Positions 6,142 to 13,090 of a stretch of 44,459 bases of DNA are shown here, piece by piece. Each line of letters starts with the position of its first letter. Position 1 is the stretch's first letter. The notes beneath the pieces are model-generated. The model was not told where the DNA came from and did not search any database. It saw only the letters and a list, made by a program, of their open reading frames with translations. This DNA comes from a candidate division WWE3 bacterium (GTDB taxonomy: Bacteria > Patescibacteriota > WWE3 > 2-01-FULL-39-13): contig CALRDH010000001.1 in NCBI GenBank assembly GCA_943354835.1, positions 1-44,459 on the forward strand, read 5' to 3'. Made by a program: the position numbers and the translations under genes.

Positions 6142-6228
6142 TGGCGGAGGGAGTGGGATTCGAACCCGCGCGTGCTTTCGCACACACGCTTTCCAAGCGT
6201 GCGCCTTAAACCACTCGGCCATCCCTCC
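6142..6228 (-). tRNA. tRNA-Ser(GGA)
   Basis: Acceptor GGAGGGA/TCCCTCC-G-CCA, anticodon loop TT-GGA-AA, long variable arm, GGTTCGAATCC. Confidence 0.95.
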
Positions 6229-6901: not shown

Positions 6902-7584
6902 ACCTTTGGGAAAAAGAATATGAAGAAAGAAAAGATCTTCCATCTAGTCAGACAATGGTTCCTTCCCGTGCATTAAGAGAATTTTGGGAAAGTGAGGAGA
7001 TCAAGAATTTACATATGGATAGCGCACTAGATATTGGATCAGGTCTCGGAAGAAATTCTATTTACATGGCGGCGCAAAACGGATTCGCACATGTTGTTGG
7101 AGTTGAAATTGTAGACTCCGCAGTCGATAAAGCAAGAGAAACAATAGATGAACTAGGACTTCAAAATAAAATAACATTTGTTAATCAATCAGTCGGAGAT
7201 TCACTACCATTCGAAGATCAATCTTTTGATTTAATCGTCGACATGATGGTAATGCATCTTTTAGACCCCAATGAACGCGCAAAATATTTTGCCGAAATTC
7301 AAAGATTATTAAAGCCAAACGGATTTTTTGTCTTTTATACAATAGCAGCAGACAGCGAAGCGGCAAAGGCGTTATTTGAATCAAGTCCAGGACCAGAAGA
7401 AAATTCTTATATAATCCCACAATCAAGAATGATCGAGAAAGCATTTACTGACGACGAATTAATTAAAGCTTTTCCTGAATTAAATGTTATTAGGCTAAAC
7501 CACAAAACACAATTAACACCAGCCTTCGGTGATGTTTACAAAAGAGAATACATATCAGGAGTCATGAAGAAACCTTTGGCATAG
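6889..7584 (+). CDS. Class I SAM-dependent methyltransferase
   Basis: ALDIGSGLGRN, GVEI, LPFEDQSFDLI, RLLKPNG. Confidence 0.9.
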   Translation: MAQLDLWEKEYEERKDLPSSQTMVPSRALREFWESEEIKNLHMDSALDIGSGLGRNSIYMAAQNGFAHVVGVEIVDSAVDKARETIDELGLQNKITFVNQSVGDSLPFEDQSFDLIVDMMVMHLLDPNERAKYFAEIQRLLKPNGFFVFYTIAADSEAAKALFESSPGPEENSYIIPQSRMIEKAFTDDELIKAFPELNVIRLNHKTQLTPAFGDVYKREYISGVMKKPLA

Positions 7585-8004
7585 AATTTTTATCTCTCTT
7601 ACAGCAGTTTCGATATCAAAGTTTTTTGGTATGTGTATAAATGCATAGTTTTGATTTTTCGATGCGATTAAGTAGGACAACAAATTGCAGTAGGAGTTCC
7701 CTATACCGCAGGCATTTTTAGACTCAACGCCTGGATTGATTTGTGTCGAAATTAAATATTCAGATTTTCGATTTTCATCTATCAATTTATTTCTAAATTT
7801 ATTTTTGCAGATCGTTTCGATTCTTAACTTATCATTATCTTTTCCGCTATATTGGCCTAGACCCAAGACAAACACATTATTACTTATCTGGAAATTTCGA
7901 ATTTCACTTTCAGTTGAAGGCAAATAATATTTATTCTTTATCGGGAGTAATTTTGCAATTCTTTCGGAGATATTATTTTTAAAAGCTATAACGCAGATTT
8001 CCAT
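7555..8004 (-). CDS. Pyroglutamyl-peptidase I (C15)-like protein, compact
   Basis: LGLGQ...LRIE (Glu), GNSYCN (Cys), FIHIP (His) match the C15 catalytic triad contexts. Confidence 0.65.
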   Translation of the reverse strand: MEICVIAFKNNISERIAKLLPIKNKYYLPSTESEIRNFQISNNVFVLGLGQYSGKDNDKLRIETICKNKFRNKLIDENRKSEYLISTQINPGVESKNACGIGNSYCNLLSYLIASKNQNYAFIHIPKNFDIETAVREIKILCQRFLHDS

Positions 8005-9095
8005 TTTAACTTTTCTTCCACAAAATTTTTTATATTTTTTTGAAATTTTTCTTTTGTGAATTTTTTGGCGTGTTTTTTGATGAGCTCGTGATCAAATCCA
8101 ATTTTTTGCAACCTTCGTATTGCTCCTAACAAAGACTTTTCGTTTAGATCATCAAAAAACACGCCCGTCTTATCTTCTTCAACTGTCTCCAAATACCCTC
8201 CACTTTTTAATGCGATAACGGGCTTTCCATATGCCATAGGTTCAATTGCTGCAATTCCAAAATCCTCATTTTTCACTGCACAAACTACTGCTTTACAAGT
8301 TTTATACAAATGATCTTTTGTCTCTTCAGAAATTCTTCCTAACATTTTTATCGAACGATATTTTGATACAAGTTCCAAAAGCGTCTCCTCCTCGGAACCC
8401 GTTCCTGCAATTATTAATGGAATATTATTTTTACCAAATACTTTTATTAAAAAATCTATATTCTTATAACTTTCCAAACGTGAAATTACTAAATACGATT
8501 TGCTATCAATACTCAAAGTTTCGTTTTTAATATTTTGAGAATCAACTTGAGCAAATGGATATATTACTTCCGCATCCCTTTTATAAATTCTTTTTATTCG
8601 ATTTTGAACTTCTTTTGAATTGCATAAAAGAAAGTCTGGTCTTTTTGCGAACTCCTGATCTTTGCGTCGCAGGCAAAAATCAATCGGCCAAAGCAAAATT
8701 TTCATATACCAAGCATTTCGATTTTTTGTTGAGGTCTCGTATCCATATAAAAATCTTGGAGGCGTGTGTATATAACTTATATGAATTTGTTTTTCGTTCG
8801 TTTTAACGCCCTTTGCAAAATGCGCTGTAGAAGAAATCACTAAATCGTATTTTGACAAATCAAGATGCTCAAAATAAAAAGGTAAAAACAAAACTAATAA
8901 TTTTTTTGGAATGTATTTTCCCCAATTTGGAAAAAAGATTTTCGCACCTTTAAAAATTCCCAAAGAATCTAAAAGCTGCTTGTTATATGTCGCAGTATAG
9001 ACATCGGCCTCTGGAAAAACTTCAAAAACAGCGTTTGCTAAAACTTCGGCTCCTCCGTATACATCAAGGTAATCATGAACAATTGCAATTTTCAT
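7986..9095 (-). CDS. Glycosyltransferase family 4
   Basis: KIAIVHDYL..GGAE, SYIHTPPR, SRLESYK, EDFGIAAIEPMAYGKPVIA. Confidence 0.92.
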   Translation of the reverse strand: MKIAIVHDYLDVYGGAEVLANAVFEVFPEADVYTATYNKQLLDSLGIFKGAKIFFPNWGKYIPKKLLVLFLPFYFEHLDLSKYDLVISSTAHFAKGVKTNEKQIHISYIHTPPRFLYGYETSTKNRNAWYMKILLWPIDFCLRRKDQEFAKRPDFLLCNSKEVQNRIKRIYKRDAEVIYPFAQVDSQNIKNETLSIDSKSYLVISRLESYKNIDFLIKVFGKNNIPLIIAGTGSEEETLLELVSKYRSIKMLGRISEETKDHLYKTCKAVVCAVKNEDFGIAAIEPMAYGKPVIALKSGGYLETVEEDKTGVFFDDLNEKSLLGAIRRLQKIGFDHELIKKHAKKFTKEKFQKNIKNFVEEKLKWKSAL

Positions 9096-10033
9096 AATAA
9101 TTTAGGAGCAGTTCCTCTAATTTCAATCGACTTCTTTTCAAGCATATCCAACTTTCGATTTAAACTTCGAAATCCAAGCCTGTCAAAAATCCTTTGAACT
9201 TTTGAAACATCAAAATCATGAACTAAACAATCTTTCAAATTAAATTCCATTGGAATATTTGTAATTATAGTCGCAAGTTGCTTGCTCATAAAGGCTTCAT
9301 CTTTATCATCGATTAATTTTTTCTTGACCGAGGCTGACTTAATAGAATCTAAATTATCATAAATATTTTCGAGTGTTCCAAACTGTCCAATTAATTGTTT
9401 TGCCGTGACATCTCCAATTCCCATAACACCTGGAATTCCATCACTTGGATCACCTCGCAAGGCCTTATAATCAATCATCAACTTTGGTTCAAAAGTATAT
9501 TTTTCTTTAAATTTCTCGGAATCAAAAAGCTCGCTTTTAATATATGGAGGCCTTGCGGGCCTGTACACAAAAATCTTGTCATTAATTAATTGCAACAAAT
9601 CTTGATCAGCTGTAGAAATAACAACATCTAAATCTTTTGAAGCAACTGCGGACGCAGTTCCCAAAACATCGTCGCCTTCAAAACCGTTTTGTGTAAGACG
9701 TGGAATATTAAAAGCTTCAATTACTTCGATCACAAGAGGAAGTTGTTCTTTAAAAATATGGTCGTCCTCTGGCTCCATCGAAACACGCGCAAACTGATAA
9801 AGCGGATAAAGTTCCTTTCTAAAAGAAGGCTGATCTTCGCTTTCCCATCCACATGCAATATGTGTTGGATTCAATGTCAAAATCGACTCTAAAAGTGAAG
9901 AAGCAAAACCAAAAACAATATTTGTATGTTCACCAGTTGAAGCAACAAGATCCTTTGGATAAGCATGAAAACTTCGATGCAAAAAATAAAAAGTATCTAA
10001 AAGCAAAAGCTTATCGGAATTAGGCGAAGACAT
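9092..10033 (-). CDS. Stand-alone 5'-3' exonuclease/flap endonuclease (PolA N-terminal domain family)
   Basis: LLDTFYFLHRSFHA, GFEGDDVLG, TADQDLLQL, ALRGDPSDGIPGVMGIG; no polymerase domain; start moved to ATG 10033. Confidence 0.9.
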   Translation of the reverse strand: MSSPNSDKLLLLDTFYFLHRSFHAYPKDLVASTGEHTNIVFGFASSLLESILTLNPTHIACGWESEDQPSFRKELYPLYQFARVSMEPEDDHIFKEQLPLVIEVIEAFNIPRLTQNGFEGDDVLGTASAVASKDLDVVISTADQDLLQLINDKIFVYRPARPPYIKSELFDSEKFKEKYTFEPKLMIDYKALRGDPSDGIPGVMGIGDVTAKQLIGQFGTLENIYDNLDSIKSASVKKKLIDDKDEAFMSKQLATIITNIPMEFNLKDCLVHDFDVSKVQRIFDRLGFRSLNRKLDMLEKKSIEIRGTAPKLL

Positions 10034-10068
10034 GTAGAAAATATAGCATGAAAATGAAAAGGGAACTT

Positions 10069-10192
10069 CAGACGAAGGGAGGGGGGATAATTGATACGAT
10101 GTCTTGTCGCGTGACAAGAATTTTGTCGATGTTGCCCCCTCCCCGGCTAGTAAGCTCTAGCCAAAAACTGGTACGCCCAGTTTTCTCGTCTG
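10069..10192 (+). ncRNA. Unassigned structured element (four-way junction), candidate ncRNA or ssDNA element
   Basis: Four stems with 1-nt linkers paired by eye; 64/124 G+C; G-U pairs favour the + strand. Confidence 0.5.
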
Positions 10193-10229
10193 CGGAAAAT
10201 TTTAATATATGAGACATCTAGTGTCAATT

Positions 10230-10763
10230 TTATGTTTTCCAAATTGATTCTTCAATTTTTTCCTTGCGGTTTACATATCGTGCCATTACGAATAGCAAGT
10301 CGGAGAGCCGATTTAAATATGGTAAAAATGTTTCGATAGAAGGACTTTTTAATGAAACTGCATATCGTTCGACTTTACGAGCAAATGTCCTTGCATAATG
10401 AATGTGGGAAGAGGCAATACAGCCTCCAGGAAGAATAAAATTAGTAAGCCGAAGTAATAGCTTTTCATAATCATCAATCGTTTTTTCAATGTTTTCCACC
10501 TCTTTAAGCGAATCAAACTTTAACTTTCCGCCTGCACAAATTGCGCCAACAACAAATAAATCTTTTTGTATTTCTTCTAAAACATCTATATCTTGAGAAA
10601 AATCAAAATCCGCCTCATACAAATTACTAACACAAATTCCAACATAAGAATTCAACTCATCCAAAAGCCCAATAAATTCAACAACCTTTGAATCCTTTTG
10701 AACCCTTTGACCATTTGCTAAACCAGTCGTTCCCTTATCACCAGTCCTTGTATAAATAGACAT
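10230..10763 (-). CDS. ATP:cob(I)alamin adenosyltransferase, PduO type
   Basis: IYTRTGDKGTTGL, DELNS, FILPGG, ARTFARKVER, YLNRLSDLLFVMAR. Confidence 0.93.
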   Translation of the reverse strand: MSIYTRTGDKGTTGLANGQRVQKDSKVVEFIGLLDELNSYVGICVSNLYEADFDFSQDIDVLEEIQKDLFVVGAICAGGKLKFDSLKEVENIEKTIDDYEKLLLRLTNFILPGGCIASSHIHYARTFARKVERYAVSLKSPSIETFLPYLNRLSDLLFVMARYVNRKEKIEESIWKT

Positions 10764-10784: not shown

Positions 10785-11345
10785 TCAAAAAGAATTCAAT
10801 TGGAAATCGATTTCATCCGCCATATCAAATACTTTCGGAGACAATCTTACAACCAAAGAATTTGCAATTGCAGTTTTTGGCTCACTTCGGCAATCAGGGT
10901 CATAAGGTGAAACCTCGGATGAGATTTTAAATAAGTTTGACGGAATATAGAGACGATTTGTTAGAAAATCTATACATCTCTGTTCGTCATTATCACCTTG
11001 CGTCCAAGTTATACGATTTAAAGTATCGTGACGAGACACGCCCCAACATCTTTGAGCTTCAATTATAGTTCTCCACATTAACGCAACACCATAACCATTT
11101 TCCGTAAAACCATCCTCCACCTTTAAATAATATGGAGGACGACCAATCTCAACAACGTTATATCTCAAAAAAGAAAATCCACAAGAACCAACTGACGCCC
11201 CATTTAATCCAATTTTGACGACATGAATCCCATAGCTTTTATCAAATACAGTTTCAGTAGAAATCCCTCGAGTAGAAAGAATCTCAACGATTGGAGAACA
11301 TTCGAATTTACTTCCTCCTTCTATATATGGGTTAATTGGGCTCAC
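10785..11345 (-). CDS. Hypothetical protein, possibly GNAT-like
   Basis: 186-aa ORF, GTG start; VEDGFTENGYGVALM resembles GNAT motif A. Confidence 0.5.
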   Translation of the reverse strand: MSPINPYIEGGSKFECSPIVEILSTRGISTETVFDKSYGIHVVKIGLNGASVGSCGFSFLRYNVVEIGRPPYYLKVEDGFTENGYGVALMWRTIIEAQRCWGVSRHDTLNRITWTQGDNDEQRCIDFLTNRLYIPSNLFKISSEVSPYDPDCRSEPKTAIANSLVVRLSPKVFDMADEIDFQLNSF

Positions 11346-13013: not shown

Positions 13014-13090
13014 TGGTCGGGGTGACAGGACTTGAACCTGTGGCCTCAAGACCCCCAGCCTTGCGCGCTAGCCAACTGCGCCACACCCCG
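13014..13090 (-). tRNA. tRNA-Pro(GGG)
   Basis: CGGGGTG/CACCCCG-A-CCA, anticodon loop CT-GGG-GG, GGTTCAAGTCC. Confidence 0.95.

Follow-up and report, generated by a model that had tools for sequence, protein, structure and literature searches.

A species-specific four-way-junction element with a predicted minus-strand promoter is a candidate young small-RNA cassette in a WWE3 bacterium

The closest described counterparts of the element reported here are lineage-specific stand-alone small RNA (sRNA) genes, the "young" or orphan genes that include sRNA and moron-type cassettes on mobile DNA. The usual shape of an sRNA is a single-stranded seed followed by a terminator hairpin. The element shares with these genes a predicted promoter of its own, a compact stable fold, an intergenic position between unrelated housekeeping genes and occurrence in one species only, but it differs from them in having no canonical intrinsic terminator and in forming a closed four-way junction from its 5′ end. 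Several RNAs in Rfam also bring four helices together at one junction at a similar size (tRNA, the SAM-I and cobalamin riboswitch cores, and the twister-sister and hairpin ribozymes); however, none of them matched the element at E values up to 10 in a scan of positions 9900-10350. Among DNA elements, REP/BIME repeats mobilized by RAYT (Y1 HUH) transposases and MITEs are likewise built of short perfect palindromes clustered inside a short inverted repeat, and insert between the end of a gene and the promoter that follows. By contrast, the present element is single-copy, shares no sequence with transposase-flanking repeats, shows no target-site duplication and carries an outward promoter.

Two bodies of published work offer further comparisons. 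G+C-rich intergenic regions of A+T-rich genomes are sources of novel structured noncoding RNAs, as outlined for the approach of the Breaker laboratory (PMC8632094). The element resembles the candidates described there in its base composition (52% G+C in a 35% G+C genome), intergenic location, strong folding and lack of an Rfam match; those candidates, however, were accepted on covariation across homologs, and for the element we found no homolog. Template switching during DNA replication, as presented in PMC8794818 and PMC10710096, creates hairpins or keeps them perfect, and its products resemble the element in their perfect arms, their recent lineage-specific origin and the palindrome-rich genome around them. 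They differ in that several such events would be needed to nest three hairpins in a fourth stem, in that we identified no donor sequence, and in that the process as presented does not supply a promoter. Template switching could thus explain the perfect arms but not the promoter.

We analyzed a stretch of 44,459 nucleotides (hereafter the window; contig CALRDH010000001.1, positions 1 to 44,459) from the genome assembly of a candidate division WWE3 bacterium (GCA_943354835.1). The assembly comprises 884 kb in 8 contigs and is rated 100% complete; the genomes of relatives measure 0.4-1.1 Mb. The 124-nt element lies at 10069-10192, in the spacer between two genes that are both on the minus strand, so that a plus-strand transcript would be antisense in orientation to both neighbors, as the preliminary description of this DNA had it. 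The features of the locus are as follows.

9092-10033, minus strand: 5′-3′ exonuclease (FEN-type), 313 aa, PF02739 (E 5e-40) and PF01367 (E 3.4e-32), the downstream neighbor
10040-10048, minus strand: extended -10 box of the exonuclease gene, TGCTATATT, 6 bases from the ATG with A at +7 (leaderless-type), kept in the relatives' spacers that were read
10049-10063, minus strand: U-rich tail CCCUUUUCAUUUU, the 3′ half of the ancestral mini-terminator; a U-rich tract starts 8 nt after P1
10064-10229, no strand assigned: species-specific segment of ~166 nt, in place of which relatives have a spacer of ~26 nt containing GGGTAGCCC/GGGCTACCC mini-hairpins (one or two)
10069-10075 with 10186-10192: closing helix P1, 7 bp
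10077-10143: long arm P2, with its base at 10077-10085 paired with 10135-10143 and its tip hairpin at 10102-10119
10145-10162: P3, a perfect 6-bp hairpin with a 6-nt loop
10164-10184: P4, a hairpin of 8 perfect bp that contains an A-tract and a T-tract and has a loop of 5 nt
10199-10227, minus strand: predicted sigma-70-type promoter, -35 TTGACA (10227-10222), 17-nt spacer and -10 TAAAAT (10204-10199), 11 of 12 consensus matches
10230-10763, minus strand: cobalamin adenosyltransferase-family protein, 177 aa, PF01923 (E 1.5e-49), the upstream neighbor

Two further minus-strand open reading frames (ORFs) near the locus, at 10785-11345 (186 aa) and 7555-8004 (149 aa), had no Pfam match.

Folding of the plus strand of 10069-10192 as RNA gave a minimum free energy (MFE) of -66.5 kcal/mol, against -32.6 +/- 3.4 kcal/mol for dinucleotide shuffles (z -10.0), and none of the 200 shuffles folded equally well. 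The minus strand also formed a four-way junction (-57.5 kcal/mol, z -7.4, 0 of 200 shuffles as good), leaving the plus-strand fold the more stable by 9 kcal/mol. With DNA parameters, the energies were -33.0 (plus) and -31.5 kcal/mol (minus), with the same architecture on both strands, and the junction persisted on either strand when flanks were added. In a genome-wide scan of 27,605 plus-strand windows of 130 nt (step 32), a window covering the element only partly ranked sixth by raw energy. The element has a G+C content of 64/124 (52%), compared with 34.7% in 2 kb of flanks. Thus, the element is a real, very stable single-strand structure.

The plus-strand MFE structure was exactly the four-way junction proposed beforehand, with every stem in place, the four 1-nt linkers present and the contrast in base composition borne out. 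Outside the middle of P2, all 37 of 37 pairs are perfect, including those of the G+C-rich P2 base (9-10 bp) and the P2 tip (7 bp). The middle of P2 is imperfect and differs between strands: on the plus strand, it contains three G-U pairs (G30-U54, U27-G57 and U24-G60), and on the minus strand, C-A mismatches and a large internal loop. The preliminary description had counted five G-U pairs in P2, forming on the plus strand only. Such pairs do exist there, but they number three, and the minus strand has two of its own at the junction, where two G-U wobbles (G8-U30 and G49-U117) take up the four "linker" bases. The minus-strand junction therefore contains no unpaired base at all, and its arms measure 7 bp (P1), 9 bp (P4′), 6 bp (P3′) and 10 bp (P2′ base). 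With three G-U pairs on one strand and two on the other, this asymmetry does not settle the strand.

The element is present in natural populations. Contigs from sequencing runs of two lake-water studies carried the same DNA with 0 differences (X2, covering 9984-10212, and X3, covering 9800-10236); a further run, X1, may be the source of the assembly itself. These contigs are all DNA, and the runs listed as containing the element include no RNA run. Since identical contigs came from two studies, the element is not an assembly artifact, and it is fixed where sampled. Another run (X4) contained a second, related strain with 20 differences over 10236-10500 (265 nt of the upstream gene, ~92% identical). 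To the left of 10236, the contig of this strain no longer follows the window, the departure lying immediately to the left of the stop codon. The contig's 30-letter loose end reads the stop codon and then TTGACC, close to where the window has the -35 box; this 30-mer had no match among the genome contigs searched.

We compared the element with known RNA families. At gathering thresholds, the 4227 models of Rfam 15 matched the window only at two tRNAs elsewhere, which ARAGORN also found (tRNA-Ser, 6142-6228, and tRNA-Pro, 13014-13090); ARAGORN detected no tRNA at the element, and its arm lengths and loops do not fit a tRNA-like structure. In a sensitive scan of 9900-10350 with E up to 10, the best overlapping match was mir-335 at 17.3 bits (threshold 64; E 0.45), a chance hit. 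A 6S RNA identity was rejected, and so was a bacterial SRP RNA, as RF00169 and RF01854 had no match anywhere in the genome and the element is absent from a genome of the same genus. GC skew stayed uniformly negative throughout the window and had no turning point, which argues against a replication origin or terminus. These results agree with the preliminary description, which did not recognize the element as a known RNA and had proposed the Rfam comparison.

The gene order around the element is conserved; the element is not. The exonuclease gene is present in 19 of 21 related genomes, the host included, and an adenosyltransferase-family gene lies upstream of it in 8 out of 10 family genomes (G001-G010, with G004 and G006 differing). 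Of nine metagenome loci, we read eight (L053-L060), L061 lacking the start of the exonuclease gene, and the neighbor order was kept in all eight. None of the 16 syntenic spacers (eight from family genomes and eight from metagenome loci) contained the element. Spacer length among relatives ranges from a few bases to 196 nt, some relatives having almost no spacer between the two genes, and the closest spacers carry only a small GGGTAGCCC hairpin. In the genome of the same genus (G001), whose exonuclease is 92% identical, and in metagenome loci at 85-91% identity, the spacer is ~50 nt long with one or two GGGTAGCCC/GGGCTACCC copies. In a MAFFT alignment with G001, the two sequences are similar up to and including GAAAAGGG (10056-10063) and again from the stop codon TTA (10230-10232) onward, which delimits the species-specific segment. 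P4 was aligned to the ancestral AAAAGGGTAGCCCC mini-hairpin, of which it may, on this slender resemblance, be a vestige.

Wider searches gave the same picture. A covariance model (R1) built from the element as a single sequence matched only the host genome among 101 relatives, 12 family genomes (E up to 10) and 151 genomes across the phylum, the runs on 101 and 151 genomes using stricter filters by which weak matches can be missed. A DNA search of 61 genomes for relatives returned a best non-self hit of 30 nt (E 0.01) within a coding region, and blastn against phage and plasmid records returned no match. Exact patterns, which miss diverged relatives, likewise gave 0 matches (two against genome and viral contigs, one against metagenome contigs). 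By these searches, the element is not conserved but an orphan, found in one species only. As no homolog was found, there is no covariation to read and selection is unproven. The preliminary description had called the element a selected single-stranded structure: the stable structure stands, but neither the spacers nor the R1 searches yielded a homolog that would speak for selection. It had also taken a lack of homologs and covariation to argue against function, and on that reading function is unproven.

Within its own genome, the element is single-copy, its only BLAST match being itself, as the copy-number check proposed beforehand also returned. No arm recurs in a fuzzy search allowing 2-5 mismatches, nor does the adjoining A+T-rich promoter piece; a single CAGACGA...TCGTCTG pair at C1:246610 is due to chance. 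A search for antisense targets with the element, and also with 10040-10220, at E up to 10 gave no second match to the element, the only extra match of the longer query being 19 nt that map left of the element.

These data bear on the suggestion that the element is MITE- or REP-like, which is not supported, given its single copy, the lack of a recurring arm and its dissimilarity to the repeats at the genome's one Y1 transposase gene. As a REP/RAYT repeat, it would be a single copy with none of the RAYT-flanking repeat words; as a MITE, it would be single-copy with only a 7-bp inverted repeat (P1) and no target-site duplication relative to the empty sites. The Y1_Tnp gene itself (C2:35826-36113) is flanked by GGGCCTGGCCC...GGCCTAGGCC repeats. 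Around this 215-aa gene (PF01797), in C2:35300-36400 (L071:1006-2020), a G+C-rich repeat, CGGGCCTGGCCC...GGCCTAGGCC, occurs in both direct and inverted orientation. The repeat words occur at about six further places, including a 42-bp palindrome at C1:230549-230590. From their sequences, the gene and its repeats are a candidate RAYT/REP system in a genome of the candidate phyla radiation (CPR). Hairpins that are long, perfect and G+C-rich, with stem lengths of 12-19 bp, are also numerous in the genome, for example at C1:261320-261400, C1:277970-278045, C5:1460-1500, C5:13860-13898, C4:45715-45755 and C3:158915-158960; by a crude ORF map, 34 stems of at least 12 bp lie inside ORFs and 6 outside. 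The gene with a RuvB_N domain (C3:29249-30376) has no structured gap adjoining it.

A feature absent from the preliminary description is the predicted promoter on the minus strand. This near-consensus site sits within the species-specific segment and points into the element. By contrast, a consensus scan of 9700-10600 found no plus-strand promoter with at least 9 of 12 matches. The TAGCAT at 10044-10049 that had been put forward as a plus-strand -10 box is present in the sequence, but it overlaps the extended -10 box of the exonuclease on the other strand, and no plus-strand promoter scoring at least 9 of 12 accompanies it.

We evaluated such sites across the 884-kb genome. Those with at least 11 of 12 matches numbered 40 on both strands together, no more than the 33-52 obtained in six simulations under a first-order Markov model. 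Their placement, by contrast, was not random: 16 of the 40 lay wholly outside crude ORFs, in 7.6% of the sequence, where ~3 were expected, and 7 of these 16 end 7-10 nt before an ATG. A TAnnnT box stood 6-9 nt before the first ATG in 280 out of 870 ORFs, compared with 69 out of 890 control positions, and a Shine-Dalgarno-like word preceded 107 out of 870 ORFs, compared with 60 out of 890 controls. Given this placement and spacing, such sites behave as promoters of leaderless transcripts. It thus appears that the organism relies on sigma-70-type promoters, that most of its mRNAs are leaderless and that transcription starts 7-10 nt after the -10 box. Many promoters in this genome are of the extended -10 type (TGnTAnnnT). 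Elsewhere, in C2:165876-166240, a strong promoter with the boxes TTTACA-17-TATAAT precedes three stable hairpin domains, which lie within the next 350 nt and reach -73 kcal/mol over 190 nt.

Applying the genome's own leaderless-gene spacing to the minus-strand promoter places the predicted transcription start at 10192-10189 (+7 to +10), which are the first bases of P1 on the minus strand. When 18 strong promoters were compared by the structure of their first 130 nt, that of the element came first by a wide margin (z -7.7; next -4.5). The consensus match and the spacing are observed; we infer from them that the promoter fires. The exonuclease gene would not need this promoter, as it has its own conserved -10 box. 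No Shine-Dalgarno-like sequence precedes the exonuclease ATG, so a transcript that began at the upstream promoter, with a leader of 159 nt, would be ill-suited to express that gene.

Where a minus-strand transcript would end is less sharply indicated. We found no minus-strand terminator-like site in 9700-10600, that is, no G+C-rich hairpin with a directly following U-run, so a reading of the element as an intrinsic terminator was rejected; the only terminator-like site in this interval was the tip of P2 on the plus strand, inside the element. No U-run directly follows the closing helix. The U-rich tail at 10049-10063 is a possible, non-canonical 3′ end of the candidate RNA. Nucleotides 8-30 of the predicted transcript hold the P4′ hairpin and its U-run, which resemble the small gene-end hairpins of the genome and might stop transcription early. 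Because both flanking genes are on the minus strand and that strand has no terminator-like site, read-through can also transcribe it.

The small hairpins that occupy this spacer in relatives recur in the host genome. The exact 9-mer GGGTAGCCC occurs 13 times and its complement GGGCTACCC 4 times, 17 sites in total where fewer than one is expected. Nearly all lie between a preceding A-run and a following T-run, and many directly follow a stop codon or an RNA gene (the RNase P RNA ends at C6:24341); examples are C1:13154 (window 13154), C1:54360/54380, C1:256343/256362 and C6:24342. By its sequence and placement, this motif looks like a stereotyped, sequence-specific gene-end hairpin.

Taking these results together, the element is best classed as a lineage-specific structured small-RNA candidate, and we tentatively prefer, at somewhat short of an even chance, to read it as a young orphan cassette for a minus-strand small RNA. 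The ~166-nt segment would have replaced the small terminator-type hairpin that relatives carry between the adenosyltransferase-family and exonuclease genes. Positions 10064-10229 would then form a self-contained minus-strand transcription unit, in which a promoter precedes the 124 nt of the fully stacked four-way junction. Between the predicted 5′ end and the first helix there would be at most 3 nt, and the product would be a stable stand-alone RNA of ~125-145 nt with its 5′ end buried in the closing helix. Apart from the internal loop of the long arm, this RNA would expose no long single-stranded surface, and a protein or RNA partner would most likely make contact at that loop. The fold and its uniqueness to this species are observed, and any function for the cell would be a further step. 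The earlier proposal of a small RNA thus keeps its place as the best reading, but its assignment to the plus strand is not supported, since the sole strong promoter and any read-through from the neighbors are both on the minus strand. Speaking against a cassette, every stem is a perfect palindrome apart from the middle of P2, a pattern expected from a recent event at the DNA level.

That last observation is at the center of an explanation that we regard as unlikely yet serious, namely inert or selfish palindromic DNA: a one-off REP/MITE-like insertion of a hairpin cluster, or a product of template switching, in a freely varying spacer, with the promoter fortuitous or co-inserted. The 37 of 37 perfect pairs outside the P2 middle are what a young DNA palindrome would show, the element is species-specific, and the spacer varies from a few bases to 196 nt among relatives. 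The genome itself is rich in long perfect G+C-rich palindromes, it has one Y1-transposase (RAYT-like) gene with flanking REP-type repeats, and template switching has been reported to make RNA hairpins, as described in PMC8794818. Against inert DNA of this kind, the element is single-copy, none of its arms recurs with 2-5 mismatches, it shares no sequence with the transposase-flanking repeats, and no target-site duplication is visible, the ancestral hairpin having been replaced and not split. Nor would inert DNA account for an 11 of 12 promoter placed so that transcription is predicted to begin at the very base that opens the closing helix. A cis-acting role in the neighbors' minus-strand mRNAs is less probable still. 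The element would either take over from the lost mini-terminator, as a structured 3′ end protecting or terminating the adenosyltransferase-family transcript, or serve as a leader or interference device through which a strong upstream promoter would modulate the exonuclease promoter. Its position is exactly that of the relatives' GGGTAGCCC gene-end hairpin, P4 resembles that ancestral hairpin, no minus-strand terminator-like site lies between the element and its two minus-strand neighbors, and the genome has other modules of promoter plus structured leader. Several relatives, however, are almost without a spacer, so nothing is required there, and the closing helix has no directly following U-run. 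The exonuclease, moreover, has its own leaderless-type promoter and no Shine-Dalgarno-like sequence for a 159-nt leader, in a genome dominated by leaderless starts.

A plus-strand small RNA, antisense in orientation to both neighbors, would profit from the fold that is stabler by 9 kcal/mol, from three G-U pairs that become C-A mismatches on the other strand and from a TAnnnT box (TAGCAT) 20 nt upstream. We nevertheless consider it very unlikely: no plus-strand promoter reaches 9 of 12 in 9700-10600, the TAGCAT overlaps the exonuclease -10 box on the other strand, the minus strand has two G-U pairs of its own at the junction, and no plus-strand terminator follows, the only such site being the P2 tip inside the element. 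A small protein gene is hardly credible. Two frames are open, one of 49 aa on the minus strand (10217-10068), beginning ~12 nt after the upstream gene's stop codon, and one of 54 aa on the plus strand (10048-10212), but stop-free stretches as long occurred in 30% of 2000 composition-matched shuffles, and neither frame had a Pfam match at E up to 10. In addition, the start of the 49-aa frame falls between the -35 and -10 boxes, the whole segment is absent in relatives, and a fold at z -10 is unexpected for coding sequence.

A separate observation concerns the signal recognition particle (SRP) pathway in this genome and its class. Beyond the missing SRP RNA in the host (RF00169 and RF01854), RF00169 was found in none of 21 genomes. 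The Ffh M domain (PF02978) was not found in the host genome, and the SRP54-type GTPase domain common to Ffh and FtsY (PF00448) was found in 0 of 41 genomes of the class, the host included, whereas all 14 control genomes were positive. No ORF of at least 150 aa contained DT[AS]GR, which we take to be a suitable motif for an SRP-pathway search. Our literature search found no report of an absent SRP pathway. If real, this pattern would mean that a whole CPR class, the host and 40 relatives of the same class, is without co-translational SRP targeting.

For the element, what follows depends on whether the predicted cassette is expressed. If it is inert, a z -10 fold together with a good promoter is insufficient to call an RNA gene in palindrome-rich genomes, which would be a caution for structure-based noncoding RNA screens in CPR genomes. 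If it is expressed, it would be a very young RNA gene, useful in studying the emergence of structured RNAs in minimal genomes, which have almost no described regulatory RNAs, and its origin would be dated because the empty site survives in a species of the same genus. More speculatively, and as something of a long shot, ultra-small CPR/Patescibacteria genomes may repeatedly gain species-specific cassettes of a promoter plus a four-way-junction RNA, mutually unlike in sequence, in permissive spacers, either from template-switching palindromes or as tiny mobile RNA "morons", with this element as one fresh example soon after it replaced a terminator hairpin. If true, such recurrent gain would be a so far undescribed route for the birth or movement of RNA genes.
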